From: a virus
DNA length: 64,000 nucleotides
IMG/VR virus record: IMGVR_UViG_3300042446_000499
Coordinates: 8,489 to 72,488 of that record
Strand: one strand, 5' to 3'
Position numbers and translations under genes: made by a program. How positions within the stretch are numbered: the stretch's first letter is position 1; every line of letters begins with the position of its first letter. The notes under the pieces are model-generated. The model worked only from the letters and a program-made list of their open reading frames with translations, was not told where the DNA came from and did no database searches. Of this stretch, positions 1,642 to 64,000 are shown piece by piece.

Positions 1642-3333
1642 ATGGCAGTTGATTTTTGGTCCCCATCCTACAGAGCGTCTTCTAGCGACCTCACCGTTGC
1701 GATTTCTCCACTTGGTTTGGTGGAACTTGCAGACGAAGAGTTTGAAGTACATGGTCCACGCCTAAACCGCTACGCATCTGCATGGGCTTGGTACCTTGGT
1801 CACCACTGGTCTTACCGCCGTGAAATGGGTGAATCACAGTTCTACATGAACTATGTCCGTACGATGTCGGACTACATCACTAACTTTTGTTTTGGTAAAG
1901 GAATTCAATTCCGTTGTCCAGAGCAAAATGCCGCTATTATCCCCAGCCTTTTGCATGAAGTGTGGGATATGCATAACAACAAGCATTACGTTTTGTGGGA
2001 ACTAGGACAACTTGCGTCGGTTACAGGAGATGCTTTTGTTAAAATTGCTTATGAAGAGCCATTTGTAGACTCTGTGGGTATCCCACATCCTGGTCGTATT
2101 CGTGTTGTTCCACTGAACCCAGCGCATTGCTTTCCTGAGTATCACCCCCATGACCGTGACCGTCTTCTTCGCTTCAAGTTAAAGTACCGTTTTTGGGGTA
2201 CATCTCCTGAAGGTACTCGTCAGGTTTACACTTTTACAGAAATCCTTTCTGATGACCTTGTACAGCAATTCATCAACGATGAATTAGTGGATGAGTATCC
2301 AAATGCACTTGGAACAATCCCAATCGTTCACATTCCTAATGTGACCATTTCGTCGTCGCCTTGGGGTCAATCAGACATTTGGGACATCATCCCACTTAAT
2401 CGTGAACTTAACGAAAAGATGGTTGAAGTTTCTGACATCATCAACTACCACGCCGCCCCCGTAACAATCATTACTGGTGCTAAGGCTTCCCAGTTGGAGC
2501 GTGGACCCAAGAAGGTTTGGGCGGGTCTTCCTAAAGATGCCAGCGTATTTAACCTTGAATCACGTGGCGAGATGTCTGGTGCACTGGAATACATCCAAGT
2601 AATTAAGCGCACTATGCATGAGATTACTGGTGTGCCTGAAACGGCACTTGGTCAAATGCAACCAATTTCTAATACCTCTGGCGTTGCTTTGGCTATCCAG
2701 TATCAGCCAATGATGAACCGCTTTAACATGAAGAAGATTCACTTCACTAAGGGTCTTGAGCGGATTAATGAAATCATTATCCGTACTGCGGCTGTATTTG
2801 AACCACAGATGTTGTTGTTTGATGGTTCTAAATCAGCAATGCCTGAGCCAGACCAACTAACACAGTTGGACCCACTTGACCCTCTGACTTATCACACTAC
2901 TGTGCACTGGCCTGAGCCACTGCCAGTTGACGTTCTCATTAAACTCAACGAAGTCCAAGCCAAGATGCAACTTGGGCTGGAGTCTAAGCGTGGCGCTCTT
3001 CGCATTCTTGGCGAAGAATTCCCCAACGAAAAGATGGCAGAAATCTTTGAAGAACTGCAAGATGACGCCCTTGACCAAGGTGCTTTAGACATGATGCGAG
3101 CACAAATTCAACAAGCCATTATGATGGCAACTGGCATGGTTTCTGGTGAATCAGGTGTTGAGCCAGCCTCTGCTGGAGGTGCTAATGTATCTACAACAGG
3201 TGCGGAAGCATCTGCCCCCCTCCCTGGGGTCGGTGCCGCTATCGGCATTGAAGGGGAACTCGTAAATAAAATTGTAAGTAAGGCTTACGGTGCAAGGTTC
3301 GCCCAGCGTCGTAATCCTGACGAAGATAACTAA
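1642..3333 (+). CDS. Portal protein (SPP1 gp6-like)
   Basis: 563 aa with the GTIPIVHIPN...WGQSDI..IIPLNRELN and SGVAL motifs typical of SPP1-type portals. First gene of the head cluster. Confidence 0.85.
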   Translation: MAVDFWSPSYRASSSDLTVAISPLGLVELADEEFEVHGPRLNRYASAWAWYLGHHWSYRREMGESQFYMNYVRTMSDYITNFCFGKGIQFRCPEQNAAIIPSLLHEVWDMHNNKHYVLWELGQLASVTGDAFVKIAYEEPFVDSVGIPHPGRIRVVPLNPAHCFPEYHPHDRDRLLRFKLKYRFWGTSPEGTRQVYTFTEILSDDLVQQFINDELVDEYPNALGTIPIVHIPNVTISSSPWGQSDIWDIIPLNRELNEKMVEVSDIINYHAAPVTIITGAKASQLERGPKKVWAGLPKDASVFNLESRGEMSGALEYIQVIKRTMHEITGVPETALGQMQPISNTSGVALAIQYQPMMNRFNMKKIHFTKGLERINEIIIRTAAVFEPQMLLFDGSKSAMPEPDQLTQLDPLDPLTYHTTVHWPEPLPVDVLIKLNEVQAKMQLGLESKRGALRILGEEFPNEKMAEIFEELQDDALDQGALDMMRAQIQQAIMMATGMVSGESGVEPASAGGANVSTTGAEASAPLPGVGAAIGIEGELVNKIVSKAYGARFAQRRNPDEDN

Positions 3334-49038: not shown

Positions 49039-49213
49039 AGAAACAAAACAAGCCTACGCACGTGCGATGGGCTACACAACAAATGAAGATTACGCACAAC
49101 TCAAAGCAGACTATGAAGCACTCAAGAAACGTTATGAACAAATACTGGTTGCTGTTGAAGACAGCACTGAAGCGGTTCTTAGAATTGCTAGAGAAGGCAA
49201 AATGGATTTGTAA
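49028..49213 (+). CDS. Small coiled-coil protein
   Basis: GTG start; TAATG-coupled to whiB. Confidence 0.45.
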   Translation: MDTEETKQAYARAMGYTTNEDYAQLKADYEALKKRYEQILVAVEDSTEAVLRIAREGKMDL

Positions 49214-49623
49214 TGCAATTACACCTGTGGATGGAAGAGGCATCTTGCCGCAAACGTAGAAACGACTTCTGGTATCCACCATTAGATACTGACGTTCCCG
49301 ATAACTATTACGCTATTGGACGTGAGGTGTGCCATCGTTGCCCTGTATGGGATAAGTGCTTAGACGCAGGCATTGACGAGAAATGGGGCATGTGGGGTGG
49401 TCTCACTCCACAAGAGCGAACAGTTATTGTTACTACTAATCCAAAGCCATCAGCAATAAAACAGCATGGTTCATGGATTAGATACCGACAAGGGTGTCGC
49501 TGTTCTGATTGTATTGACGGGCATAATCAACCCACAAATAAAATCAACATAAACGTCATTCCAAAGCATGGTGAACCTGTTCAAGATTTAGAAATGTTGC
49601 GTTTCAACTTGCTTTCAACCTGA
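49213..49623 (+). CDS. whiB: WhiB-family transcription factor with an extra C-terminal HG...Y..GCRC..C module
   Basis: W...A.C...C..CPV...C....GMWGG....R Fe-S signature. Confidence 0.9.
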   Translation: MQLHLWMEEASCRKRRNDFWYPPLDTDVPDNYYAIGREVCHRCPVWDKCLDAGIDEKWGMWGGLTPQERTVIVTTNPKPSAIKQHGSWIRYRQGCRCSDCIDGHNQPTNKININVIPKHGEPVQDLEMLRFNLLST

Positions 49624-49729
49624 TTGCGTGTAAAATGTAACTAGAGACCCATACCAAGGCTTTACCCCCGAGCACCTAGTGCTCTCTTGGTATGGGTTCT
49701 TTGCATTATTGGACAAACATTGGAGACAG

Positions 49730-50323
49730 ATGATTTATCGCCTCATTACAGCAATTACCCTTTCCGCTACCACCTTCTTTGGTGCCATAACGACAGGAGG
49801 TGATGAGCCAGAGGCGAGTACAACGACAGTTGTAATCACAGTTCCTAAAGTGCACAGTATGTCAACCAACATGATGCACCCCGAACTAAGAGCACAGTTC
49901 AAAACAGGAAAGGCTGGCTCCATTAAGTTTTGGGAAGCAGTGTCTTGGTGTGAGACTAACCACAACTGGAAAGATGGTGGTTACTATGCAGGTGGACTTG
50001 GTATGGCGCAATCAGCGTGGCAAGGCTTTGGAGGTAGAGAGTTCTCACACTCCCCTAAGAATGCAACCAAAGAAGAACAAATTATTGTTGCTAATCGTTT
50101 GGCATTCTTTGGATACCAAACCAAGAATGTATTCAAGACACTTGATGACAAGTTGAACAACAGACCATTCTTTCGCCCTGCTATTGGATGGCGTGACTCC
50201 AGTAACTGGGGCAGGGACTGTGTGAACTGGAAGACACGTAAACCATTACGTATTGAATACACCCAACAAACTGTGCATGCAACAGACATGCTGGACAAGT
50301 ACCTGAAAATGCCACTACAATGA
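49730..50323 (+). CDS. Secreted Rpf-like lytic transglycosylase
   Basis: Signal peptide plus WEAV..CE...NW....Y.GGL......W...GG.......AT..EQI.VA (Rpf domain). Confidence 0.8.
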   Translation: MIYRLITAITLSATTFFGAITTGGDEPEASTTTVVITVPKVHSMSTNMMHPELRAQFKTGKAGSIKFWEAVSWCETNHNWKDGGYYAGGLGMAQSAWQGFGGREFSHSPKNATKEEQIIVANRLAFFGYQTKNVFKTLDDKLNNRPFFRPAIGWRDSSNWGRDCVNWKTRKPLRIEYTQQTVHATDMLDKYLKMPLQ

Positions 50324-52942: not shown

Positions 52943-52984
52943 ACTTTACTTGTTGAGTGGTGTCTGCATGGGGTAGGGGGGGGG
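52943..52984 (-). promoter_or_regulatory. C-box promoter (leadered, drives DUF932-whiB)
   Basis: C9-TACCCC-20 nt-G-TAAAGT on the minus strand, abutting the helicase TGA. Confidence 0.8.
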
Positions 52985-54868
52985 TCACCCCATCATCTCC
53001 GAAAGTAGAAGGGCTGTCACACTACCTGCCTCAGCGTTCATGTCCTCTCCCCAACCATCAAGGCAAGCAGAGATAGTTTCTTGTTTAGCATTGCAGATTG
53101 CCCACATACGAGCGTCAATGGTTGGTGACTCAGTGTCAATGGCTGTCAGCCACCAAGCGACTACGGCATTCTTGACGCCATAGCGCCATGCCCTGTCCTC
53201 TGCCTGTGCACCAACGCTGGGCGACCATGGTATTTCAACCATGACCACGTGGCTGGCGACTTGAAGGTTGAGTCCTACGCTTGATGCATCGTATTGTCCA
53301 ATGAACAACCGAGCCTCTCCACTGGTGAACTTATTGACAGCGTTGTTCTTTGTTTCAGCAGTCATGCCACCAGCAACTACGACAACTCCATCGTTCTTGA
53401 AGTGCTCCTTGATGGCGTTGATTACATTGGTGTGGTACGCAAATGCAATGACTTGCTCTCCTGCCTCCAGCAATGAACGGATGTGAGCACATGCTGGCTC
53501 TACCTTTGCTTCACCAAGCAACTGCCTAAGTTTATTTATCTCTGTAATGACGGGAGCCTTGCTCGCTGCCATGTACGCATCATTGCCATAGTTCTCCATC
53601 ACCCAAGCAAGGAAATCTTCCTCAGCCTTGCGATACTTGTTCATAGATGCCTCAGACAACTCAACGTCTAACTGGGCACGTCTTTTGGGGGGAAGGTCTT
53701 CCAGTACATCCACCTTGCGTGTACGTGTGTAGACGGTGGAGCGCAGTATCTCATTTAGTTCTGATGTGTTAGAGGCTCCACTGGTGTTAGGAAACCCATT
53801 GACCATCTTGTAATCACAGTAACGGGTAAGGAACTGTCTCTTAGTACCGAACACTGGGTCAAGCCTGCCGATAATCTTCAACGGAGAAATAAACTCAGAC
53901 GGACGGTTAGGAATGATGGTTCCCGACAGCAACACGCAGTAACCATCCTTGGGAACCTGTGTAGCAATACGGGACAAGCCTTTAGTGCGATTGCTGTTCT
54001 CAGTCTTGAAACGGTGAGCCTCATCAACGACAAGGCTGGTGAACTTGCCAGCAAGGACATTCTGCCAAGCCTCAATGATGGAGTCGGGCACTAACAGCAC
54101 GTCACATTTTGGCAACTTGTATGGCTTACGACCCTTGATGGATGACACCTTGAGCCAAGGAGCAAACCTCTTTAGTTCTGCTTTCCATTGGTACACGAGG
54201 TTTGGTGGTACGGATACCATCACCTTGTGACCTTCCTTGACAGCCATATGCGCTACAGCAATGCCGATGGGCGTTTTACCAAGACCCATGTCCTGACATA
54301 CCAACGTACGGCGTGTACGGCGAACGAACTCAATGGCTGACTTCTGATAACCAAGGAGAGGTAGTTGTAGGTCAAAATCAAGGTCAAAATCCTTGGCATT
54401 TGACAAAGTAAATAAACCTCCGTCAGGGATAATCGGTGGCACCACTTTGTCTAACGTTTGTACGAACTCATCAAGTGCAGAACGCAACGCTGAAGAATAC
54501 GTAACGTCAGGTACGACAGTTACGGCAGAGCACTTATCAACGGCATGAAATGTACGCCACGCACCCTTTAGAAAGACCTTGTGCCCTGCACCAGCAAGGA
54601 CTACTTCATCACAGAGATGGCATTTACCTTTGGCAGTGTTCACAATAATGCGTGTGACTTCTTCAGGGATGTGCGCTAGCGCAGGTGTGCGCTCTACTGG
54701 CAGATATGCCAAGTAATCAAGCAATGAGGATGCTGACTTGAATGTCAGTTTCTCTAATTCCATTGCGCTAATCCAGTTGTCAATGCACCCAACCATTTCT
54801 AGTGGGCTGGTACGTTGTTCTAACGCATCATGTATGTCACGTTGTTGCCTTGGTGTAATTCCGTTCAT
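52985..54868 (-). CDS. SNF2-family helicase (HARP/SMARCAL1-like)
   Basis: DMGLGKT, DEAH, LSGT, VGLNL and QAEDRA.R.G motifs; leaderless start. Confidence 0.9.
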   Translation of the reverse strand: MNGITPRQQRDIHDALEQRTSPLEMVGCIDNWISAMELEKLTFKSASSLLDYLAYLPVERTPALAHIPEEVTRIIVNTAKGKCHLCDEVVLAGAGHKVFLKGAWRTFHAVDKCSAVTVVPDVTYSSALRSALDEFVQTLDKVVPPIIPDGGLFTLSNAKDFDLDFDLQLPLLGYQKSAIEFVRRTRRTLVCQDMGLGKTPIGIAVAHMAVKEGHKVMVSVPPNLVYQWKAELKRFAPWLKVSSIKGRKPYKLPKCDVLLVPDSIIEAWQNVLAGKFTSLVVDEAHRFKTENSNRTKGLSRIATQVPKDGYCVLLSGTIIPNRPSEFISPLKIIGRLDPVFGTKRQFLTRYCDYKMVNGFPNTSGASNTSELNEILRSTVYTRTRKVDVLEDLPPKRRAQLDVELSEASMNKYRKAEEDFLAWVMENYGNDAYMAASKAPVITEINKLRQLLGEAKVEPACAHIRSLLEAGEQVIAFAYHTNVINAIKEHFKNDGVVVVAGGMTAETKNNAVNKFTSGEARLFIGQYDASSVGLNLQVASHVVMVEIPWSPSVGAQAEDRAWRYGVKNAVVAWWLTAIDTESPTIDARMWAICNAKQETISACLDGWGEDMNAEAGSVTALLLSEMMG

Positions 54869-54874
54869 GCCGAT

Positions 54875-54915
54875 ACCTTAGTTCTTAGTGGTGTTGTCCA
54901 TGGGGTAGGGGGGGG
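54875..54915 (-). promoter_or_regulatory. C-box promoter (leaderless, helicase)
   Basis: C8-TACCCC-20 nt-C-TAAGGT-6 nt-ATG 54868. Confidence 0.85.
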
Positions 54916-54948
54916 TACCCCATGGAGGTGGGGTGCCAATACTACAGT
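54916..54948 (+). promoter_or_regulatory. Divergent half C-box promoter (leaderless)
   Basis: TACCCC-20 nt-C-TACAGT-6 nt-ATG 54955; the upstream C run is replaced by G8. Confidence 0.7.
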
Positions 54949-54954
54949 GGGGTT

Positions 54955-55152
54955 ATGAAAAGCAACACATTCACGATTGACGAATACGTAGGTCTACCTG
55001 AAATCCTAAGAGCACTAGAGGCATTAGAGTCAGTTACCTACACCCATAAACAAGCAAATACGTACAATACACCTAATGACACAGATGCATTGTGGGAACA
55101 CATAAATGATGCTCTACACGTTGTAGAGAAAATAAAAGAAACAAGGAAATAA
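54955..55152 (+). CDS. Small early protein
   Basis: Start reassigned to ATG 54955 from promoter geometry. Confidence 0.6.
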   Translation: MKSNTFTIDEYVGLPEILRALEALESVTYTHKQANTYNTPNDTDALWEHINDALHVVEKIKETRK

Positions 55153-55156
55153 CAAC

Positions 55157-55696
55157 ATGCCAAACTGGACAAACAACTGTCTCTCTGTAGAGGGAGACGA
55201 CCAAGAAGTACAAGACTTCATCAACAAAGTAACGACAGAGGGTGACGACACTTACTCAATTCTCAACACGCTACTACCCACACCCACAGACCTCGGTGAC
55301 GATGGTTGGTACAACTGGAACATATCTAACTGGGGAACCAAATGGCAAGATAGTGATACTACTCTTGTTATTCGTGATAAGGGTTACGTGTTTTTTAGAT
55401 TTGATACTGCATGGGCACCACCACTAGTAGGTTTTGAGTCCATTTCAGTTATGTTCCCTGAACTTACATTTATTATCACATATGAAGAGATGGGCATGGG
55501 CTTTGTGGGATGTGCTGGATATCTAAATGGTATTCAGGCTCATGTAGAACGTGAAGACATCTCTATCCCCGAAGAAACAGCAGATGATGACCTCATGGAC
55601 GTCATGAACGAAAGGTACACAATACTGGTAGATGATTGTGAAGCACAAGTACGCCACGCAATGAATGCCCCCCTACCCCTAGCAAAGACCCTCTAA
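55157..55696 (+). CDS. DUF1281/YubB ferredoxin-like domain protein
   Basis: MPNW..N, WY.W...NWGTKW, F.TAW.PP and Y.E.G..F.G motifs. Confidence 0.75.
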   Translation: MPNWTNNCLSVEGDDQEVQDFINKVTTEGDDTYSILNTLLPTPTDLGDDGWYNWNISNWGTKWQDSDTTLVIRDKGYVFFRFDTAWAPPLVGFESISVMFPELTFIITYEEMGMGFVGCAGYLNGIQAHVEREDISIPEETADDDLMDVMNERYTILVDDCEAQVRHAMNAPLPLAKTL

Positions 55697-55706
55697 GAAC
55701 TAAGAT
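55668..55706 (+). promoter_or_regulatory. C-box promoter (leaderless)
   Basis: Box-20 nt-C-TAAGAT-6 nt-ATG 55713. Confidence 0.85.
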
Positions 55707-55712
55707 AATGAC

Positions 55713-56036
55713 ATGACCCCACAAGAATACACAGACACATTCCATTACATCCAGCGCAACCTTGAGCAGATTACTTCATTTGCGATTGAGCATGCTATCA
55801 AGGAAAAATTACAACCCATGCTGGATGAGTACCGTAAAGAGGCAGAGACTTACCTAGACCACGGCTACGATGAACTTGACCATTGGCATGCCTTTGGTGA
55901 CAGGGTAGACCTCAACTACGTGAGCCGTAACCTTACAAACATTGTTTGCCTTGCCTATCCCGTAGTCAATGGTGTACCCAACTACGATGAGGAATATGAA
56001 ATACCCATCTCCTTTCCAGCAGACTGGAACAACTAA
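55713..56036 (+). CDS. Acidic early protein
   Basis: Leaderless ATG; ORF track. Confidence 0.65.
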   Translation: MTPQEYTDTFHYIQRNLEQITSFAIEHAIKEKLQPMLDEYRKEAETYLDHGYDELDHWHAFGDRVDLNYVSRNLTNIVCLAYPVVNGVPNYDEEYEIPISFPADWNN

Positions 56037-56248
56037 TGTCAGAACAAGATGAACAAGACTACGCCAACATGTTGGCAGACGTAGAAGAACAATACGGTGC
56101 TTCACACGATTACAAGATGGATTATCTTTCGTGGAAAGAAGATGACGAAACAGCAACCGAACAACACTACATGGCATCAGGTCAATACGAATGGAACCTA
56201 GAGCGTTATGCAGACAAACTACACCCACCCGAAGAAATGGATTTCTAA
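56036..56248 (+). CDS. Very acidic small protein
   Basis: TAATG-coupled; D/E-rich. Confidence 0.6.
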   Translation: MSEQDEQDYANMLADVEEQYGASHDYKMDYLSWKEDDETATEQHYMASGQYEWNLERYADKLHPPEEMDF

Positions 56249-56433
56249 TGAAAAAGCAATATGCAGTTTATGTAACAGAGAATGTTAGTCACATGTATGT
56301 GATTGAGGCAGAGTCAGCAGAAGAGGCAGAGAACATCTACCACTCCTATGACGATGACCAACTGAAGTCAGAAGACTGTGATGGTTCCGTAGGATGGGAC
56401 AGCCCATGGGAAGTTGTGGAATACAGTGAATAA
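56248..56433 (+). CDS. Small acidic protein (xEAESxEEA family, paralog of 57691)
   Basis: TAATG-coupled start at 56248. Confidence 0.6.
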   Translation: MKKQYAVYVTENVSHMYVIEAESAEEAENIYHSYDDDQLKSEDCDGSVGWDSPWEVVEYSE

Positions 56434-56695
56434 CAACATTATCCAAAAGAATGACACCACGTACATGCACATTGACGATTGGTACATTGGCGTACACCTT
56501 GACCGTAATGGTGACCTTATGGTGTTCATTGACCACGAAGATGGGAAAGTAGTGGAGTACAACGAAGTAATTGCAGAAGACGACACTCAATGGGGTCAGG
56601 GGTTTCATGTTGTACGTGCTACACGCCCAACAAACCCCCCTACCCCACGCACAACAATGCTACGCAGTAGAGTACATGTAGAGGTAACACAATGA
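56426..56695 (+). CDS. Hypothetical early protein
   Basis: GTG overlapping the upstream gene end; ORF track 56414..56695. Confidence 0.5.
   Translation: MNNNIIQKNDTTYMHIDDWYIGVHLDRNGDLMVFIDHEDGKVVEYNEVIAEDDTQWGQGFHVVRATRPTNPPTPRTTMLRSRVHVEVTQ
56635..56673 (+). promoter_or_regulatory. C-box promoter (leadered)
   Basis: Box-20 nt-G-TAGAGT; GAGGT RBS before ATG 56692. Confidence 0.75.
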
Positions 56696-56973
56696 ATTAC
56701 AAAGGAATAAACTGCCATGTTATTTGGGGCAATGAAGACCCTGAATACTTTTACATTTCGTTTGGCACATACGATTATGAGACAGACATAAAGCATGACT
56801 CATACGGCGTAGAAGATGACAGCATCTTCTTCTATTTTGACAACAACGAACAAGAGGCTCTTCTAAAGGCTCTTACACTTGGGCAGATACTAAAAAACCC
56901 CACGTTCTCTGTATCAGATGAATGGTACATTGACTTCCCTATGGGCTATGAGTTAGTAGAGGCTGATTTCTAA
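56692..56973 (+). CDS. Acidic early protein
   Basis: RBS plus ORF; D..IFFY motif. Confidence 0.6.
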   Translation: MNYKGINCHVIWGNEDPEYFYISFGTYDYETDIKHDSYGVEDDSIFFYFDNNEQEALLKALTLGQILKNPTFSVSDEWYIDFPMGYELVEADF

Positions 56974-57158
56974 TGCACGTTACTAACTGGGCTAAGTGGA
57001 CACGTGCCAAGAAGAAAACCATTGTTGTTCTTTACACCATAGGCATTGCACTGGGTTTCACCATTGAGAAAGCCTCCATATGGTGGGGTGTGTTTGGTCT
57101 CTTCCTATGCTTCATTGGTGCATTACTGATGAACACTATTCGCCGTTATGAATGGTGA
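56973..57158 (+). CDS. Small two-TM membrane protein
   Basis: TAATG-coupled; two hydrophobic helices. Confidence 0.6.
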   Translation: MHVTNWAKWTRAKKKTIVVLYTIGIALGFTIEKASIWWGVFGLFLCFIGALLMNTIRRYEW

Positions 57159-57160
57159 GT

Positions 57161-57229
57161 CCTGTGAGGGATGCTTCGCTCCCATAGTTCGTCGTTGCCC
57201 TATGGTAGTAGCGGAGCATTCCTCAGAGG
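57161..57229 (+). other. Long RNA hairpin between cassettes
   Basis: TGAGGGATGCTTCGCT pairs with AGCGGAGCATTCCTCA (two G:U), with an inner CCATAG/CTATGG stem. Confidence 0.65.
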
Positions 57230-57234
57230 TCTTA

Positions 57235-57271
57235 CCCCTACCCCACGCAGATACACACACCAAACTAAGAT
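57235..57271 (+). promoter_or_regulatory. C-box promoter (leaderless)
   Basis: Box-20 nt-C-TAAGAT-6 nt-ATG 57278. Confidence 0.85.
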
Positions 57272-57277
57272 AAGAAC

Positions 57278-57691
57278 ATGAACGACACACAAATTACTGA
57301 AGACCAATGGGAAGCACAATACAAGCCCATTACCAACCACCTAGACGCTAACGCATCATGGAATGGCATTATGTATGAGACCTTTGGTGCCGAAGAGGAC
57401 TTCGTTCGCCAACAACCCGCCAACAACGTATGGACGTGGGTAGATGGTGATGAGGGAACATTTATTGTTGCTGGAATGGCATATGTAAATCGCATTGGTT
57501 ACTTCGTGACCAGTGAGCCATGGACTGACTATGTAGAAATACAAGTAGATGCTTACGTGTCTACTGATGATACCGAAGAACTAAGACAACGGTTACAAGA
57601 TAACCTCCTTGCGTACTTAGATGGCATGCCTGAAGACGTATTAGACAAAGTATGTCAAATAGTTATTGACACAGTAATGGAAACAAAGTAA
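57278..57691 (+). CDS. Conserved phage early protein
   Basis: YETFG.E...VWT..DGD.....G...VNRIGY..T..P motif. Confidence 0.65.
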   Translation: MNDTQITEDQWEAQYKPITNHLDANASWNGIMYETFGAEEDFVRQQPANNVWTWVDGDEGTFIVAGMAYVNRIGYFVTSEPWTDYVEIQVDAYVSTDDTEELRQRLQDNLLAYLDGMPEDVLDKVCQIVIDTVMETK

Positions 57692-57882
57692 TGCCTACAT
57701 ACACAATGACACATATCCTGATTACACAGCACATACACGAAGTAGATGCAGAGGATGAGGACACAGCACGTGCTCTATTTGAGACCAACCAGTCATGGTG
57801 CGTGGACACAAAGGAGTCACACCTAGAAACAGACGTAGTGTTAGTGACCCCCTACCCCACGCACGACCAACCCGACAACTAA
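57691..57882 (+). CDS. Small acidic protein (paralog of 56248)
   Basis: MP.Y.......EVDAEDEDTA. Confidence 0.55.
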   Translation: MPTYTMTHILITQHIHEVDAEDEDTARALFETNQSWCVDTKESHLETDVVLVTPYPTHDQPDN

Positions 57883-57885
57883 GAT
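57848..57885 (+). promoter_or_regulatory. C-box promoter (leadered)
   Basis: Box-20 nt-C-TAAGAT; AAGGA RBS before ATG 57919. Confidence 0.8.
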
Positions 57886-57918
57886 AACTAATAACAACCA
57901 CAACAAAAGGACAACGAC

Positions 57919-58413
57919 ATGGGATTAGACCAATACCTCTCCGCTAAGAAATACGTTTCAGGCGCAGACCACAGCAACGACACAGACAAGAACACTTTTG
58001 CTGAGATAGCAAAAGCATTGAAAGTTTCACATTTATTTATTACTGACAATATGCCATCTGCTGAAGTCACTATCAAGGTAGGACAGTGGCGCAAAGCAAA
58101 CCAAATCCACAACTGGTTTGTGAACAACGTGCAGGGTGGCGAGGACGACTGCCGTTCATATTACGTTAGCAAAGAGAACCTAGAAACATTGCTAGACCTT
58201 TGCAGGCAAGTGTACGCAAAGCGTGACAATGACTTTGCAGAAGAAGTGTTACCAACTACATCAGGTTTCTTCTTTGGTGATACCAGTTTTGATGAACATT
58301 ACTACAATGACGTTCTCTACACGGCTCTTACCCTTGAACAACTATTGAATGACCCTACTCTGTCAGACACTAGTGGATGGGCTTGGGAGTTCTCTTACCA
58401 GTCATCGTGGTGA
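57919..58413 (+). CDS. Conserved phage protein (MGLD...WRKAN.IH.WF family)
   Basis: MGLDQYL, WRKANQIHNWFV, LPT..GFFFG and Y.SSW motifs. Confidence 0.75.
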   Translation: MGLDQYLSAKKYVSGADHSNDTDKNTFAEIAKALKVSHLFITDNMPSAEVTIKVGQWRKANQIHNWFVNNVQGGEDDCRSYYVSKENLETLLDLCRQVYAKRDNDFAEEVLPTTSGFFFGDTSFDEHYYNDVLYTALTLEQLLNDPTLSDTSGWAWEFSYQSSW

Positions 58414-58451
58414 CCCCCTACCCCTAGGAGAGACACCCAAACAACTAAGAT
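58414..58451 (+). promoter_or_regulatory. C-box promoter
   Basis: TGA-box-20 nt-C-TAAGAT-6 nt-GTG 58458. Confidence 0.85.
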
Positions 58452-58516
58452 GTGGGAGTGGAGAAACTGGCTGACAGGCGAAGACTCCACACCTATCTCA
58501 ACACAAAGGCAACAAC

Positions 58517-58762
58517 ATGAACACACTGAAACACATAGAACACTTCAACCCAACCATACGGGGACTCGCTGGTAAGACCATCAAGAGAGTTCGCCACATG
58601 GTAGAAGAAGAAGTCAATGGCATGGGCTGGTACCAACGTGCACACAACAATGCTTACGTCAATACCATCGTTATTGAGTTCACAGACAACACATACGCCA
58701 TCGTCAGTTCAGACCAAGAGGGAAACGATGCAGGACACCTAATTGTAGAGGACTACGAATGA
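58517..58762 (+). CDS. Hypothetical early protein
   Basis: GKTI..VR...S.D.EGN..G motif. Confidence 0.6.
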   Translation: MNTLKHIEHFNPTIRGLAGKTIKRVRHMVEEEVNGMGWYQRAHNNAYVNTIVIEFTDNTYAIVSSDQEGNDAGHLIVEDYE

Positions 58763-58998
58763 GCGACATTATTATTATTGACATGGTGACAGGCACAGTC
58801 CTCAACTATGACCCACAAGTAGTTGTGGTAGACACCGACACACTAGATGACTATGAACAGAAACTATTGGACGAATGGTATGAGTGTGGTAACGACTCTA
58901 TTATTGTTGAGTTAGGCGCTCTTACAGGAACATCCATCACCAAGTACAACACCCCTACCCCTAGCAAGCGCACGTGGTGGGCTAAGGTGAAGTCATGA
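58759..58998 (+). CDS. Hypothetical early protein
   Basis: GAGG RBS; ATGA overlap. Confidence 0.55.
   Translation: MSDIIIIDMVTGTVLNYDPQVVVVDTDTLDDYEQKLLDEWYECGNDSIIVELGALTGTSITKYNTPTPSKRTWWAKVKS
58952..58988 (+). promoter_or_regulatory. C-box promoter (leaderless)
   Basis: Box-20 nt-C-TAAGGT-6 nt-ATG 58995. Confidence 0.85.
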
Positions 58999-59441
58999 GC
59001 AACAACGACATAACAATTACAACACCAAGTGGAACTATCCACATTCAACCACGCACGTGGTCTAGGCACACAACATCCTTTCGCATGAACGTACGCCCAC
59101 GTATCTCTGTGTGGGGTGACGAAGGCGTAGAGACTGTCTTAGATAATCTCAATAATCGCACACGCCGTCCCTATGTTGAGTACAAGAAACACGCACTACG
59201 CATCCTTGCTGAAGCAGGACTAGCATTTGACGGTTCTAGGATGCAATGGAACCAATACGCATACTGCCGTTGCCCATGTTCCCCAGCGTTCGTAGCGCCT
59301 AAGCAACACCTCACATACAACGACATCACATACACACAGTATGACCTTGCTATCAAGATAAATAACCTAGGCAACGTGGACTACACGAAGCAAGGCAGGT
59401 TCTACGATGACCCCCTACCCCTAGCAACAACATCACAATGA
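58995..59441 (+). CDS. Hypothetical protein with a W.Q.A.C.C.CSP motif
   Basis: Leaderless start; ORF track. Confidence 0.65.
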   Translation: MSNNDITITTPSGTIHIQPRTWSRHTTSFRMNVRPRISVWGDEGVETVLDNLNNRTRRPYVEYKKHALRILAEAGLAFDGSRMQWNQYAYCRCPCSPAFVAPKQHLTYNDITYTQYDLAIKINNLGNVDYTKQGRFYDDPLPLATTSQ

Positions 59442-59448
59442 CTAAGAT
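59411..59448 (+). promoter_or_regulatory. C-box promoter (leaderless)
   Basis: Box-20 nt-C-TAAGAT-6 nt-ATG 59455. Confidence 0.85.
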
Positions 59449-59454
59449 AAAGCC

Positions 59455-59697
59455 ATGACAACGATAATCAACCCCAACTCACAAGACCCAATTACACGTA
59501 TCAACGTCATGCGTGTGTTCACATATGACGTGGAAGAGATAGTACGCACCATACACGAAGACAACAGAGGTGATGCTGACATTGAAGTCACTTATGACGA
59601 TGTCATGGAGTACGTGGAAACATTGGTAGAAGACGACTTTCGTAGCAACGGTATGAAAGACCTTATCTTCACAGACCAAGACGGTGACCACCTCTAA
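59455..59697 (+). CDS. Acidic early protein
   Basis: Leaderless start; stop abuts the next box. Confidence 0.65.
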   Translation: MTTIINPNSQDPITRINVMRVFTYDVEEIVRTIHEDNRGDADIEVTYDDVMEYVETLVEDDFRSNGMKDLIFTDQDGDHL

Positions 59698-59734
59698 CCC
59701 CTACCCCATGCACACCACCTCTAACAACTAAGAT
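59698..59734 (+). promoter_or_regulatory. C-box promoter (leaderless)
   Basis: Box-20 nt-C-TAAGAT-6 nt-ATG 59741. Confidence 0.85.
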
Positions 59735-59740
59735 GGCATT

Positions 59741-60133
59741 ATGACAACGACACAAATAACAGAGACAGGCAAGACCAACGACAAGTGCGATGGTTGTAAC
59801 GACTATGACAACGATGCAAAGCATCCACTAACAAAGCGTACGTGGACTCATTATGACTACGATACTGGCTGGGCATATGAAGAGGGCGAGCGTGTAAGAG
59901 GACGTTATTGCCCATCGTGCCTAACATCCATCGTGCTCATTGAGACTTCACACGCTGAGGAAGAAGAGAACGAACAAGAGCCTACGCTAGAAGACTGGGC
60001 AGAACTGGCTTGTCGGTTGGCAATGGGCATGACACGTGCGTTCAGCAACTGGAAAGACGTGTCAAGCGTAACCAAGCGTGAGATGAAAATGCTCACAGAA
60101 CAAATGGGCGAAGACTGGCAACGCAAGTGGTGA
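59741..60133 (+). CDS. Early protein with two CxxC
   Basis: CDGC...CPSC. Confidence 0.65.
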   Translation: MTTTQITETGKTNDKCDGCNDYDNDAKHPLTKRTWTHYDYDTGWAYEEGERVRGRYCPSCLTSIVLIETSHAEEEENEQEPTLEDWAELACRLAMGMTRAFSNWKDVSSVTKREMKMLTEQMGEDWQRKW

Positions 60134-60171
60134 CCCCCTACCCCATGCACACCACCCACAACAACTAAAGT
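60134..60171 (+). promoter_or_regulatory. C-box promoter (leaderless)
   Basis: Box-20 nt-C-TAAAGT-6 nt-ATG 60178. Confidence 0.85.
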
Positions 60172-60177
60172 AGAACT

Positions 60178-60588
60178 ATGAGCAACGACATAACAACCAA
60201 ATACGAACTGACCAACCAATGCACGTGTGACAACGAAGCCGACTACACAAGTTGTTACGGCTATTGTTGGGAGGACAACGTCAATGACTTCTACAACGTC
60301 AATGAGAAGTTTCTCAACAGCAATGACACAGGCTGGTGGAGAGTGACCAACATAGGACTATGGGATGGTAACCATAGCGGATACTTCTACGTTCAACCCA
60401 CAGACAAACCGTGGGTAGAGGCACAGAACATTGTGGCTGGCATGACCGTGAACAGCGACTGGATGATGCGCTACACGCCATACGATGACCGTATTGAGTA
60501 TTCCCTATCGCACCACGACAGCATGGGCAGTAACACTACCCTGACTGCCGTATCAGAGGAAGAGCGTGAGGAACTAGGTCTCTACTGA
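60178..60588 (+). CDS. Hypothetical early protein
   Basis: Leaderless start; GLW.G...G and SHHD motifs. Confidence 0.65.
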   Translation: MSNDITTKYELTNQCTCDNEADYTSCYGYCWEDNVNDFYNVNEKFLNSNDTGWWRVTNIGLWDGNHSGYFYVQPTDKPWVEAQNIVAGMTVNSDWMMRYTPYDDRIEYSLSHHDSMGSNTTLTAVSEEEREELGLY

Positions 60589-60626
60589 CCCCCTACCCCA
60601 CGCAGACAACAACAAGAAAGTAAGAT
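60589..60626 (+). promoter_or_regulatory. C-box promoter (leaderless)
   Basis: Box-20 nt-G-TAAGAT-6 nt-ATG 60633. Confidence 0.85.
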
Positions 60627-60632
60627 AAGAAC

Positions 60633-60860
60633 ATGAACAACGAAACAACAACAACACCACCACGACTAACGGGAATATCTTTCCATGACGTGGAGACATC
60701 ACACATCTCTACTGACGTTAGAGACTTTGGCAACTTTGCTATCGTCACTATCAACATAGGTAAGGCAGACATCTCATTCTTCACTACAAACATTCAAGAG
60801 GCACACTCCATCATGACGGCGCTGAGTAGGTACACCACGCACCAATGCCAAGACCAATAA
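60633..60860 (+). CDS. Small early protein
   Basis: Leaderless start; ORF track. Confidence 0.6.
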   Translation: MNNETTTTPPRLTGISFHDVETSHISTDVRDFGNFAIVTINIGKADISFFTTNIQEAHSIMTALSRYTTHQCQDQ

Positions 60861-60863
60861 AGT

Positions 60864-61110
60864 TCTTAGGGCGATACAAACCCCTAAGACCTCCCACAGC
60901 CGACCTAGAGGTTGTGGGAGGTATGGTAACTAGGTACAGGCAGAATATCGCCTGAGTAAGTCATACGTTAGGGCGTGACGAGAGATATTCACCTAACATC
61001 CCATTTGCTGGCAGGGAGGATAAAGTGTCAGCCTGACAAGTATGGTCAGATAATACGAGGGTGGCAGGTAGAGCCACCAATGGTCACGCAGACGAAGTGT
61101 GAAACATACG
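60864..61110 (+). ncRNA. Candidate structured RNA with tandem pseudoknots
   Basis: No ORF in the track; eight hairpins, four of which have loops complementary to downstream segments. Confidence 0.55.
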
Positions 61111-61115
61111 ACTAT

Positions 61116-61154
61116 CCCCCCTACCCCACGCACGACCACTACAACAACTAAGGT
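61116..61154 (+). promoter_or_regulatory. C-box promoter (leaderless)
   Basis: Box-20 nt-C-TAAGGT-6 nt-ATG 61161. Confidence 0.85.
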
Positions 61155-61160
61155 AAGAGT

Positions 61161-61499
61161 ATGACAACGACAATGACACGCTATGAAGTAAAGATAGAGT
61201 ATTCCCTAATCGTCACAGGCGACTGGGTACGCTTCATGAAGAACAACGATGGTACTCGCCACTGGGCTGGGGAGTACGACACACACAACAACTCCACAGG
61301 CGATGGTGACCTATGGTTCAGGTATGAGAACGGTGACATTCTCACATACGACACAGAGACACTACTACGTGGACTCAGGTTGTATGCACTGGCACACTCA
61401 CAGGAAGAGACACAAGAACTCATACGCATGGAGTCAGACTCACATGAGCGTAACTACGTGTGGCAGTACGGTTTCTTTGGTGACGTGCAATACTCATGA
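61161..61499 (+). CDS. Early protein, paralog of 62580
   Basis: C-terminal V.QY...G.V.Y motif shared with 62580. Confidence 0.65.
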   Translation: MTTTMTRYEVKIEYSLIVTGDWVRFMKNNDGTRHWAGEYDTHNNSTGDGDLWFRYENGDILTYDTETLLRGLRLYALAHSQEETQELIRMESDSHERNYVWQYGFFGDVQYS

Positions 61500-61537
61500 C
61501 CCCCTATCCCACGCACACAACTGACAACGACTAAGGT
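61500..61537 (+). promoter_or_regulatory. C-box promoter variant (CCCCCTATCCC, leaderless)
   Basis: One mismatch in the box; same spacing to TAAGGT and ATG 61544. Confidence 0.8.
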
Positions 61538-61543
61538 ACAGAT

Positions 61544-61918
61544 ATGACAACGAACAAGACCCAAACCCCCAAGATTATCTACGACTACTGCAATGGCGAA
61601 CGTGTAACATTCACGCTCAATAAGAATGCTGGTTACGGCTGGTCTATGGGACGTGCCTACAATACCACTATCGCTGGAGAGCATTGGACTATCGGAGAGG
61701 TGGCAGACGCTGATGAGTATTATGACGACACCACCACCACCTACGGGACACGCTGGGAACTAGACGGCGACAGGTCACGCTACGACAACGGCAACCCCAT
61801 TGACTACGACACATACAACGATTGCCCTGACGATGCTGTGCGCTGGCTGTGCCAATGGCTGGAGGCTCACCCCCCTACCCCATGCACAGGCGACTCAACG
61901 GCTAAGGTGATTGTATGA
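61544..61918 (+). CDS. Acidic early protein
   Basis: Leaderless start; ORF track. Confidence 0.6.
   Translation: MTTNKTQTPKIIYDYCNGERVTFTLNKNAGYGWSMGRAYNTTIAGEHWTIGEVADADEYYDDTTTTYGTRWELDGDRSRYDNGNPIDYDTYNDCPDDAVRWLCQWLEAHPPTPCTGDSTAKVIV
61870..61908 (+). promoter_or_regulatory. C-box promoter (leaderless)
   Basis: Box-20 nt-C-TAAGGT-6 nt-ATG 61915. Confidence 0.85.
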
Positions 61919-62061
61919 ACAACGACAACGACTTCAGCAACGCAATGTCACGGGTACTCGCCTATGGCATTGCACGTATCAACAACATGGACATGACACA
62001 CGAAGAGGCGCTAGAACTCGCTGGTGTGCCCGACACAACAGAGGACGACACACATGACTAA
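61915..62061 (+). CDS. 48-aa early peptide (not in the ORF track)
   Basis: ATG at the predicted +1; hand translation MNNDNDFSNAMSRVLAYG...HD. Confidence 0.6.
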   Translation: MNNDNDFSNAMSRVLAYGIARINNMDMTHEEALELAGVPDTTEDDTHD

Positions 62062-62215
62062 GAAACTCACAGCCACCTGTGGACACCATGACCCACTAGG
62101 GTACTTCACTGTCTTACCATGCCACAAATGCACCGTGAAAGCACATCGCAAGGCGACACACCCCAGCACCCCTACCCCACGCACAACTACCCCGACTGGT
62201 AAAGTGAAGCCATGA
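62054..62215 (+). CDS. Small zinc-binding peptide
   Basis: GAGG RBS, ATG 62054, CGH...CHKC. Confidence 0.5.
   Translation: MTKKLTATCGHHDPLGYFTVLPCHKCTVKAHRKATHPSTPTPRTTTPTGKVKP
62169..62205 (+). promoter_or_regulatory. C-box promoter (leaderless)
   Basis: Box-20 nt-G-TAAAGT-6 nt-ATG 62212. Confidence 0.85.
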
Positions 62216-62535
62216 CAACGACACAGACATTCATTCACATTGCTGACAACGAAGAGGTACAGGCGCTATGCACTGACCACGGAATTGACCACGATGCATT
62301 CATTATCTATTGTGAGAACCATCACATCACCAAAGACTATGAGTCAGAGGTGTCAGGTTTCATGGACTCATACCGTGGATGCTGGCGTAACTTCCTGAAG
62401 TTTGCAGAGCACCTATTTGACGAAACGATGGACGTGCCCGACCACCTAGCGCATTACATTGACTACGAAGCATATGCACGTGACCTCCAGCATGACTACT
62501 GGGAGACCAACGGGTACGTGTTCTTCAACATCTGA
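62212..62535 (+). CDS. ardA: ArdA-like antirestriction protein (C-terminal domains)
   Basis: F.DSY.G.W.....FAE.L......P..L..YIDYEAYARDL......GYVF ArdA signature. Confidence 0.85.
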   Translation: MTTTQTFIHIADNEEVQALCTDHGIDHDAFIIYCENHHITKDYESEVSGFMDSYRGCWRNFLKFAEHLFDETMDVPDHLAHYIDYEAYARDLQHDYWETNGYVFFNI

Positions 62536-62573
62536 CCCCCTACCCCACGCAACGACACACCACACCCTAAGAT
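62536..62573 (+). promoter_or_regulatory. C-box promoter (leaderless)
   Basis: TGA-box-20 nt-C-TAAGAT-6 nt-ATG 62580. Confidence 0.85.
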
Positions 62574-62579
62574 GAGACC

Positions 62580-62972
62580 ATGACAACGACACAACACACC
62601 ACACACCACACAACACTGGCATTGCCAGTACCCACACAGGAACTCATGAGTAGCGTTCTTGGCTCAGGCTGGGACGAGGCTGGCTACGACTGGTGGCGCT
62701 CTGCCCCCATGTATGCATCAGGCTGTGATTGGGATATCACCCCATATGACCCTGACGCTATCTACGTCAAGTTGGCTATTGCTGACCCCAACACCTATGA
62801 CACGGATGAAGATGCCAAGGTAATCATGAAGGCGCTAACAGCCAATGACATCGTGAAAGGTGTGGAGGCTATCCTGAAGCAGTGCCCGTGGGTACGCTGG
62901 GATGACATGGACGCCAGTGACGGCGACATGGTGCTCCAGTACGCCATCCTCGGTGAAGTGACGTACGGATAG
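62580..62972 (+). CDS. Early protein, paralog of 61161
   Basis: DA..GD.VLQYA..GEV.YG C-terminus. Confidence 0.65.
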   Translation: MTTTQHTTHHTTLALPVPTQELMSSVLGSGWDEAGYDWWRSAPMYASGCDWDITPYDPDAIYVKLAIADPNTYDTDEDAKVIMKALTANDIVKGVEAILKQCPWVRWDDMDASDGDMVLQYAILGEVTYG

Positions 62973-62994
62973 CGACACGACACACCACACAGCA

Positions 62995-63032
62995 CCCCCT
63001 ACCCCATGCACGTGGGGAGGGTGGGCTAAGGT
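62995..63032 (+). promoter_or_regulatory. C-box promoter (leadered)
   Basis: Box-20 nt-C-TAAGGT; GAAAGGG RBS before ATG 63072. Confidence 0.8.
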
Positions 63033-63071
63033 GTGGATATCAACCAGCGCCAACTGAAAGGGCACAACGAC

Positions 63072-63344
63072 ATGGACATACATTGCAGGAATTGCGGAGA
63101 ACCTTGGGAGAACGAAACGCTCCATGAGGTGGCACAGGAGATGGGCACCACCTACTCCAAAGTCGCCAAAGACTTCAGCGCCAAAGGGTGCAAAGCCTTT
63201 GATGGCTCCGACTACGAGACCAGCCACTGCACAGCAGACAGCAGAGCAGAGGCACGTGGACTATTGGCAGACTTGCTGGGAGACGACCTAGATGGATATG
63301 CATCCACGATGGACGACCTAGAGTACATGGGATTGCTGGACTAG
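63072..63344 (+). CDS. Small early protein (MDI.C..CGEPW family)
   Basis: CRNCGEPW...GC...LLGDD.DG. Confidence 0.65.
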   Translation: MDIHCRNCGEPWENETLHEVAQEMGTTYSKVAKDFSAKGCKAFDGSDYETSHCTADSRAEARGLLADLLGDDLDGYASTMDDLEYMGLLD

Positions 63345-63359
63345 CGCGGCGACACGCCA

Positions 63360-63396
63360 CCCCTACCCCACGGACACGACACGACACGACTAAGGT
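63360..63396 (+). promoter_or_regulatory. C-box promoter (leaderless)
   Basis: Box-20 nt-C-TAAGGT-6 nt-ATG 63403. Confidence 0.85.
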
Positions 63397-63402
63397 GAAG
63401 AC

Positions 63403-64000
63403 ATGAACAACGACACGACAACACACAACACGACACGCCACTACTACATGGGTGGATACTCACTAGGTCACCATGTATGGGTGGCTGGGGAGTATTACCT
63501 AGATGTGGCTGGGAAACTGGCTGATGCTGGCTCTATGGAATTGGCTGGGCAGATGCTCCGTCAGGCTGAAGAGTCATATGCATGGGCGAATGCTTTACAG
63601 TCGGGAACCTTCCTAGAGGTGGGCGAGGATATGGTGGGCGTACGCATAGATACGCTGGATGCATGGATGCCTACTGAGCGTGTAGCAATACTGAATGCAC
63701 GTGTACGTGGTGAAACCCTGCCCCCATCCCCCTCACGTGAGCACGTGGAACTTGGTAGCCCTGAGAATGTTTCACGTGAAACATCTAGTTGCACAGTACA
63801 AGTAAATGCGGCGCCGACCCCCTACCCCATGGAGACCCCCCCTAGCGCCTACGATGGAGTTATGGAAACAACCACCACCACAGCAACAGCCATCAGCGAC
63901 ATTGTCGCCCAACTCATCACACTCATTTCCTCTCAGGTGCTCTCACAGGTCACCAGCGAGATTGAGAGCATCTGCGAAGGCATCATTGAGAATGGAGACT
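63403..64000 (+). CDS. Early ORF open to the window edge, with an internal in-frame leaderless start at 63862
   Basis: Hand translation shows no stop from 63403; 63862 minus 63403 is a multiple of 3. Confidence 0.5.
   Translation, partial: MNNDTTTHNTTRHYYMGGYSLGHHVWVAGEYYLDVAGKLADAGSMELAGQMLRQAEESYAWANALQSGTFLEVGEDMVGVRIDTLDAWMPTERVAILNARVRGETLPPSPSREHVELGSPENVSRETSSCTVQVNAAPTPYPMETPPSAYDGVMETTTTTATAISDIVAQLITLISSQVLSQVTSEIESICEGIIENGD
63768..63783. other. parS: parS centromere-like site (chromosomal ParB/Spo0J consensus)
   Basis: Perfect 16-bp palindrome TGTTTCACGTGAAACA. Confidence 0.85.
63818..63855 (+). promoter_or_regulatory. C-box promoter (leaderless)
   Basis: Box-20 nt-C-TACGAT-6 nt-ATG 63862. 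Confidence 0.8.

Follow-up and report, generated by a model that had tools for sequence, protein, structure and literature searches.

The DNA under study is a window of 64,000 nucleotides (bases 8489-72488), i.e., most of a 72.5-kb viral record. Since portal, tail sheath and baseplate proteins, DNA polymerase I and helicases are encoded in the window, it was assigned to a myovirus, the DNA polymerase of which is at most about 36% identical to its counterparts in the phages of the reference collection. A gene for a WhiB-type regulator adjoins an Rpf-like transglycosylase domain (Table 1), and because these are typical of Actinobacteria and their phages, the host is probably an actinobacterium. 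The DNA sequencing runs containing the locus were without exception (18/18) lake or freshwater metagenomes.

From about 55 kb to the end of the window, small genes on the + strand form an early array, and the motif CCCCTACCCCAYGCA was found before each of them, with 19 copies at sites 52965-63833 as compared to 0.09 expected by chance. All 17 copies on the + strand are followed, exactly 16 nt after the motif, by a TANNNT hexamer in which T1, A2 and T6 are invariant and the middle positions vary, and the next ATG lies 6 nt beyond this hexamer in 12 of the 17; at the copy at 55670 an earlier ATG intervenes, and the gene's own ATG at 55713 is also at the 6-nt distance. In the usual layout of the array, the stop codon of a gene abuts the motif of the next one. 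In our reading, the unit resembles a -10 element of Actinobacteria, used with leaderless messages, and not a ribosome-binding site, TANNNT being a -10 hexamer associated with such messages. The C-rich part of the motif differs between close relatives, namely CCCCTCCCCAGCACA in the viral contig G001 (22.8 kb) and CCCTCCCCCTYGGCT in the viral contig G002 (94.5 kb, rated complete), which hints at a phage-specific recognition factor. Other members of the array include a protein of 107 aa in which an ArdA anti-restriction domain was recognized (E 1.7e-13), encoded about 1.1 kb downstream of the RNA element described below, and a 164-aa protein without Pfam family that is 90-95% conserved in the relatives. 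The latter has 1587 homologues (E <= 0.001) in a large protein collection, mostly on freshwater metagenome contigs, and is a widespread, uncharacterized early protein of phages.

As compared to the usual layout, 257 extra bases lie between the TAA of a 75-aa gene, here called gene C (stop codon at 60858-60860), and the motif CCCCTACCCCACGCA at 61118. They hold a structured RNA that begins 1 nt after the stop codon and at its 3' edge is abutted by the next promoter-like unit, the ATG of which is the start of a 112-aa gene (gene D). The earlier note on this DNA had described the region as the only long gap without ORFs in the array; it is indeed the longest stretch between 55.1 and 64 kb without a + strand ORF of at least 50 aa, but not the only one, as shorter stretches exist at 57159-57277, 58414-58516 and 61919-62023. 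Mechanical ORFs (36 and 58 aa) overlap with the element, in which no reading frame is conserved owing to indels of 1 and 2 nt in the relatives, and a mini-frame with GGAGGA and GUG at 61015-61036 was dropped as it is lost in G001. A likeness of the 5' strand of pseudoknot PK1 to the C-rich motif most likely reflects shared C-richness only. With the 19 motif copies mapped, no unit of C-rich motif and TANNNT was found directly upstream of the RNA, and since the RNA lacks a promoter unit of its own, it appears to arise as the 3' portion of the transcript of gene C, for which the promoter-like unit of gene C is the presumed source. A search for intrinsic terminators on the + strand was negative. 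A covariance model of the element, R1, recognized a single copy in the window (60860-61115, 316.7 bits).

Table 1. Positions of the features discussed in the text (window coordinates, unless a relative's locus is named).
Feature	Position	Strand	Description
WhiB-type regulator	49213-49620	+	
Rpf-like transglycosylase domain	49679-50320	+	
Second structured element	57160-57232	+	long imperfect hairpin, conserved
164-aa protein	57919-58413	+	
Promoter-like unit of gene C	60590-60632	+	C-rich 15-mer, 16 nt, TAAGAT, 6 nt, ATG
Gene C	60633-60860	+	75 aa, directly 5' of the RNA
Structured non-coding RNA	60861-61115	+	about 255 nt; sharp-edged conserved block in three genomes
Hairpin H0	60864-71 with 60882-89	+	8 pairs, invariant in three sequences
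PK1	60890-60935	+	stem 60890-901/60910-21; loop ACCUAG 60903-08 with CUAGGU 60930-35
PK2	60937-60990	+	stem 60937-41/60950-54; loop 60943-49 with 60984-90
Inserted hairpin	60960-60997	+	60960-64 with 60975-79, plus 60966:60973
PK3	60999-61032	+	stem 60999-61002/61014-17; loop 61007-13 with 61026-32
PK4	61033-61109	+	stem 61033-37/61045-49; loop GUAUG 61040-44 with CAUAC 61105-09; spans hairpins 61060-65/61073-78 and 61084-89/61097-102
Next promoter-like unit	61118-61160	+	C-rich 15-mer, 16 nt, TAAGGT, 6 nt, ATG
ArdA-like 107-aa protein	62212-62535	+	
C-rich motif sites in relatives	L002 and L003, around 2950-3010		

The element is present at 95% identity in G002 and at 89% identity in G001. 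The edges of the conserved block are sharp in the three genomes, with an unalignable flank upstream and the C-rich motif always downstream. As the flanking DNA is 74-89% identical to that of G002 as compared to 95% for the RNA, selection on the RNA is clear in this comparison; in G001, the identity of the element (89%) is no higher than that of the flanking genes (85-90%). The known copies comprise the three genomic ones and one variant from RNA libraries, all at least 89% identical, and most pairs never vary among them. No homologue was detected by blastn of the element against 50,697 phage records. When three exact patterns of the element were searched in viral contigs, only G001 and G002 proved real, the other 13 and 7 pattern loci being chance matches as judged by nhmmer. 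A 19-mer scan of metagenome contigs yielded 0 matches, and an 18-mer scan of genome contigs yielded 42 loci, all by chance. Moreover, 80 metagenome loci around distant homologues of the 164-aa protein had no nhmmer match to the element, and model R1 found no match in the 54 of these 80 loci to which it was applied; 18 loci reached through the DNA polymerase were mostly short fragments. The gene order around the pair of gene C and RNA (60178-61499) is shuffled between the close relatives: gene D, located 3' of the RNA here, lies 5' of gene C in G001 and G002, and no counterpart of the 136-aa gene B was seen in the compared part of G002. In their behavior, these genes with flanking promoters resemble movable cassettes.

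A homologue of gene C lies directly upstream of the RNA in 3/3 genomes, other neighbors having changed, and in G002 its stop codon falls inside the first hairpin of the RNA. The protein identity is about 65% to G002 and 36-41% to G001. Pfam gave no match for gene C, no homologues were present in the fetched loci besides the three genomes, and the phage records held none of gene C or of two distant family members; one match from a single-protein search covered 10 residues only and was spurious. The AlphaFold2 model of the protein (pLDDT 76.6) matched small ribosomal-protein-like chains as the best Foldseek hit in the PDB (E 0.04, below significance), reached a best VIA Z of 4.8, likewise below significance, and in the Atlas resembled only unnamed viral clusters (score 0.81). 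Thus, no fold or function could be assigned to gene C from the PDB, VIA and Atlas comparisons. The strict adjacency in all three genomes despite rearranged neighbors might indicate that the gene C product and the RNA constitute a two-part module and form an RNA-protein particle, which would be in line with the small size of the gene C family (29 representatives, only among uncultured sequences). However, gene C has diverged quickly (36-66% identity) and the RNA hardly at all, and the protein belongs to no RNA-binding family or fold recognizable by Pfam or by fold matches, which remained below significance; we thus regard such a particle as quite unlikely.

The earlier note had proposed that the region is almost fully paired and consists of four tandem H-type pseudoknots. 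All 76 pairs listed there are Watson-Crick or G:U pairs. RNAfold predicted -92.5 kcal/mol for the + strand (z -5.17), far better than shuffled controls, of which 0/200 were as good; the - strand of the element reached z -4.89. When the island was scanned in 255-nt windows, z values below -5 were obtained only for the window of the element and for one at 57020 (z -5.7). Located there is a second structured element, a hairpin flanked by the stop codon of a 61-aa gene (57158) on one side and the motif at 57235 on the other, with several compensatory stem changes in G002; the stretch 57020-57240 has a fold z of -4.75. A simple search for hairpins with a loop pairing downstream detected five in the RNA with at least 10 bp in stem and loop helix together, a number matched by 2/500 dinucleotide shuffles; looser hairpin-loop candidates are common, at least five being present in 53/500 shuffles. 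In an extended model of 86 pairs, which adds among others a 3-bp closing helix between the two ends of the element, the 257 cells include 13 G:U, 0 A:C and 1 other mismatch. Because of this asymmetry the RNA was assigned to the gene strand (+), and the earlier statement that the mismatches are mainly G:U and point to an RNA of the + strand is supported.

Since the 76-pair model was built from one sequence, the relatives constitute an independent test of it. In the alignment of the three genomes, pairing is retained in 99.6% of 227 cells, and both partners have changed in 4 pairs; when the partners were slid by 1 to 3 columns, pairing dropped to 28-42%. The chance expectation was derived by re-placing the substitutions of each relative at random on the same bases. 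G001 carries 23 substitutions, 11 of them in paired columns, resulting in 1 broken pair as compared to 9.1 expected, and 0/20000 random placements were as good. For G002, with 9 substitutions, there were 0 broken pairs as compared to 3.7 expected (P 0.003). A nested model derived by RNAalifold did worse, with 2 broken pairs in G001. Across the genomes, the extended model displays 5 compensatory pairs, to which the variant from the RNA libraries adds 2, one of them at a pair that covaries in G001 too. This variant, present in the RNA-library contigs of 4 runs, has 6 changes, four of which form the two compensatory pairs, and at least two such pairs arise by random placement with P 0.0006. By a generic test for selected structured RNA, the pairs are preserved, compensatory changes are present and breaks are far below random.

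The support for the individual helices was found to differ. In the stem of PK1, one pair is G-U, U-G and A-U in the three genomes; the PK1 loop helix is invariant, and its 3' strand has an alternative partner in ACCUA at 60991-95. In the loop helix of PK2, G001 has compensatory changes at two pairs (60944:60989 and 60945:60988), for which G002 displays a G-U intermediate, and in the RNA-library variant A-U is changed to G-C at 60944:60989 and 60947:60986. With three covarying pairs, this helix is the best supported of 309 possible helices, and therefore at least one pseudoknot is directly supported. As its 5' strand sits in the loop of the invariant hairpin 60937-54, formation of that hairpin would make PK2 a genuine H-type pseudoknot, and the hairpin is present in both the minimum-energy and the centroid folds. 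In the inserted hairpin, the RNA-library variant changes 60961:60978 from U-A to U-G, and 60965 A>G replaces an A.C mismatch by G-C. Pairing is possible between the loop of this hairpin, GUUAGG (60967-72), and CCUAAC (60992-97), a helix absent from the earlier note, which shows one U:A to C:G change in G001 and a 1-nt bulge in both relatives. The loop helix of PK3 has a G-U to A-U change and an end pair that is G-C, G-U or G.A, and its stem a U-A to C-G change in G001 if an alignment gap is moved by one column; the sequence variation therefore lends modest support to PK3. In PK4, the stem shows A-U to G-U and the spanned hairpin 61060-78 a compensatory G-C to A-U change, and the loop helix as well as hairpin 61084-102 are invariant. 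Hence, the series of four H-type pseudoknots proposed earlier is borne out only in part: PK2 is supported by covariation and PK3 has modest support, whereas the loop helices of PK1 and PK4 do not vary among the three genomes. The element also contains unpaired stretches, as long as about 20 nt, that are invariant.

It might be argued that the conservation reflects a DNA-level element, such as a replication origin or packaging site, or a chance palindrome-rich spacer, given that the - strand also folds well. This is very improbable: with 13 G:U versus 0 A:C cells the pairs hold only on the + strand as RNA, a helix formed across a hairpin loop shows compensatory changes, RNA libraries contain the sequence, and iterons or repeats are lacking. 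Structure-preserving substitutions, the RNA-library variant and the G:U asymmetry all bear out the earlier proposal of a structured + strand RNA in the early island. We consider it highly probable that the element is a real and selected structured RNA of the + strand that represents a new family.

Rfam searches gave 0 matches at the gathering score in the whole window and 0 families at E <= 10 with the element alone; with the segment 60500-61500, only a match to a lncRNA family was obtained at E <= 10, by chance and outside the element. As no Rfam family matches even at this permissive threshold, the novelty assumed in the earlier note stands. ARAGORN detected 0 tRNA or tmRNA genes in the whole window. 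A group I intron was discounted, since the upstream sequence is a complete 75-aa ORF ending with TAA, the downstream sequence is the ordinary inter-gene motif and there was no Rfam match. Many small self-cleaving ribozymes occur in phage genomes, and the sharp edges, the pseudoknotted fold and the lack of a terminator or separate promoter would also be compatible with an RNA that is, or contains, a self-cleaving ribozyme cutting itself from a polycistronic early transcript. However, no Rfam ribozyme family matched the element alone at E <= 10, including the cores of hammerhead, HDV-like, twister, pistol and hatchet ribozymes, no conserved core of a known class was recognized by eye, and its 255 nt exceed the size of known small self-cleavers, so that a ribozyme is improbable.

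A further proposal of the earlier note was a decoy that mimics the RNA of type III toxin-antitoxin systems. Type III antitoxins consist of tandemly arrayed, almost identical units about 34-36 nt long, and phage copies of ToxI can act as decoys. ToxI and its phage-borne mimics are likewise pseudoknot-forming RNAs, and the early island that harbors the pseudoknot-rich element also holds an ArdA-like anti-restriction gene. By contrast, Tandem Repeats Finder (60700-61300, minimum score 30) returned 0 rows and the only direct repeat in the element is one 10-nt pair; since tandem or direct repeat units are lacking, a ToxI-like array is disfavored. Moreover, the element differs from ToxI in having neither an Rfam antitoxin match nor a ToxN-like neighbor, leaving an antitoxin mimic with hardly any probability.

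RNA libraries contained the element as well. For a 1201-nt stretch that includes the element, 8-13% of the sampled words were present in six metatranscriptome runs, as compared to all of them in 18 DNA runs. Each of the four RNA-library runs examined, from 4 studies, yielded one contig of 198-252 nt that lies wholly within 60869-61120, has no loose end and contains no gene C sequence. This is a weak hint of accumulation as a discrete stable RNA, to be read with regard to the nature of the data, as assembled contigs cannot give true ends, strand or level and the libraries may contain DNA. Contigs can also stop where co-occurring strains diverge, which here coincides with the edges of the element. 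No contig of at least 85% likeness covered 60400-60868 or 61121-61600 in the four runs, and this missing cover carries no weight. The ends of the contigs differ from run to run and are set back inside the element, from which we infer that they fit coverage fading at transcript ends better than a break in the assembly graph.

We regard the element as a new RNA family within the stable structured viral RNAs, as it belonged to none of the known families against which it was tested, and several known systems invite comparison. The closest analogues are the xrRNA-derived subgenomic RNAs with regard to mode of action and the abundant non-coding RNAs of actinobacteriophages with regard to biology. 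tmRNA is a stable RNA with a series of pseudoknots and is encoded by some phages; the element likewise has a pseudoknot series, and would share the stability if it is stable, but is about 100 nt shorter and has no recognized tRNA-like end or tag reading frame. In the 3' untranslated region of tobamoviruses, consecutive pseudoknots directly follow the stop codon and precede a tRNA-like end. This upstream pseudoknot domain resembles the element in that several pseudoknots in a row follow the stop codon where a viral message ends; however, tobamoviruses are plant RNA viruses that depend on eukaryotic translation, and their tRNA-like end is absent from the element according to ARAGORN. Flavivirus subgenomic RNAs arise by incomplete digestion by XRN1 (PMC13483245). 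In these RNAs and their XRN1-resistant elements (xrRNA), too, a pseudoknotted block is found at the 3' end of a viral transcript, and the block may outlast the coding part. The element did not match any xrRNA family in Rfam (E <= 10), and whereas the enzyme in flavivirus infection is XRN1, stalling would here have to concern RNase J and PNPase, the relevant exonucleases in Actinobacteria, as proposed by analogy for this bacterial DNA phage. The actinobacteriophages WC1, D29, Kampy and L5 have highly expressed non-coding RNAs of unknown function (PMC10986025). These abundant RNAs, too, come from non-coding regions in phages of Actinobacteria; they lie at the genome ends, as the end-region RNAs of D29, Kampy and L5 do, or in the middle, and the passages considered from that source contained no pseudoknot model of them. 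Unlike these described actinobacteriophage RNAs, the element has no sequence match in the 50,697 phage records. A full-text search of articles found no report of tandem pseudoknots in phages, and searches on phage pseudoknots with exoribonuclease resistance or anti-defense revealed nothing comparable among the articles listed.

Starting from the observed conserved structure, strand, edges, linkage to gene C and lack of a known family, we propose that the RNA is transcribed from the promoter unit of gene C, either as the tail of the gene C message or in longer read-through transcripts, and that it folds into a compact chain of hairpins and H-type pseudoknots. This fold would stop host exonucleases at both edges, as in flavivirus subgenomic RNAs, so that the coding part would decay and the folded block would persist as a discrete RNA of about 250 nt; we infer that release would occur through nuclease stalling rather than a specific cut, for which the RNA-library contigs, with ends close to the borders of the element, provide a weak hint. 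We assign a probability of roughly 0.5 to all of these steps taken together, as far as a free and stable RNA that nuclease stalling has released. The stable RNA might then have a trans-acting role during early infection, for which the binding and retention of a protein, from either the host or the phage, is the likeliest mechanism. This binding role is speculative; the invariant single-stranded stretches together with the ArdA-bearing island suggest a specific interface rather than mere stability. A still bolder version, in which the RNA would be the counterpart in a bacterial virus of the flavivirus subgenomic RNA, jamming RNase J and PNPase of Actinobacteria and serving, early in infection, as a decoy for a host nuclease or an RNA-sensing defense protein, is rather unlikely.

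Alternatively, the element may act only in cis, as a 3' element that remains attached to the gene C message and either protects it against 3'-to-5' decay or shields it from the promoter that follows. Its start 1 nt past the gene C stop codon, the stop codon inside the first hairpin in G002 and the fact that the RNA always follows gene C are in accordance with this view, and as no terminator was found, a structured 3' block could act as a decay barrier. Contrarily, the invariant single-stranded stretches and the complex pseudoknotted fold exceed what a decay barrier needs, the RNA is far better conserved than gene C, and the RNA-library contigs, as a weak hint, are devoid of gene C sequence and loose ends. 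A purely cis-acting role is therefore judged unlikely, and a free RNA that persists after nuclease stalling is the preferred reading.

To our knowledge, very few structured phage RNAs have a known role, and none has one in phages of the abundant freshwater Actinobacteria. The element described here is small enough for in vitro study and possesses a pseudoknot backed by covariation. Even as a mere 3' stabilizer it would constitute a new RNA family that merits inclusion in Rfam. Should it function as a decoy or by nuclease stalling, a strategy of eukaryotic RNA viruses would extend to DNA phages, and a compact stable RNA module would become available for use in Actinobacteria.
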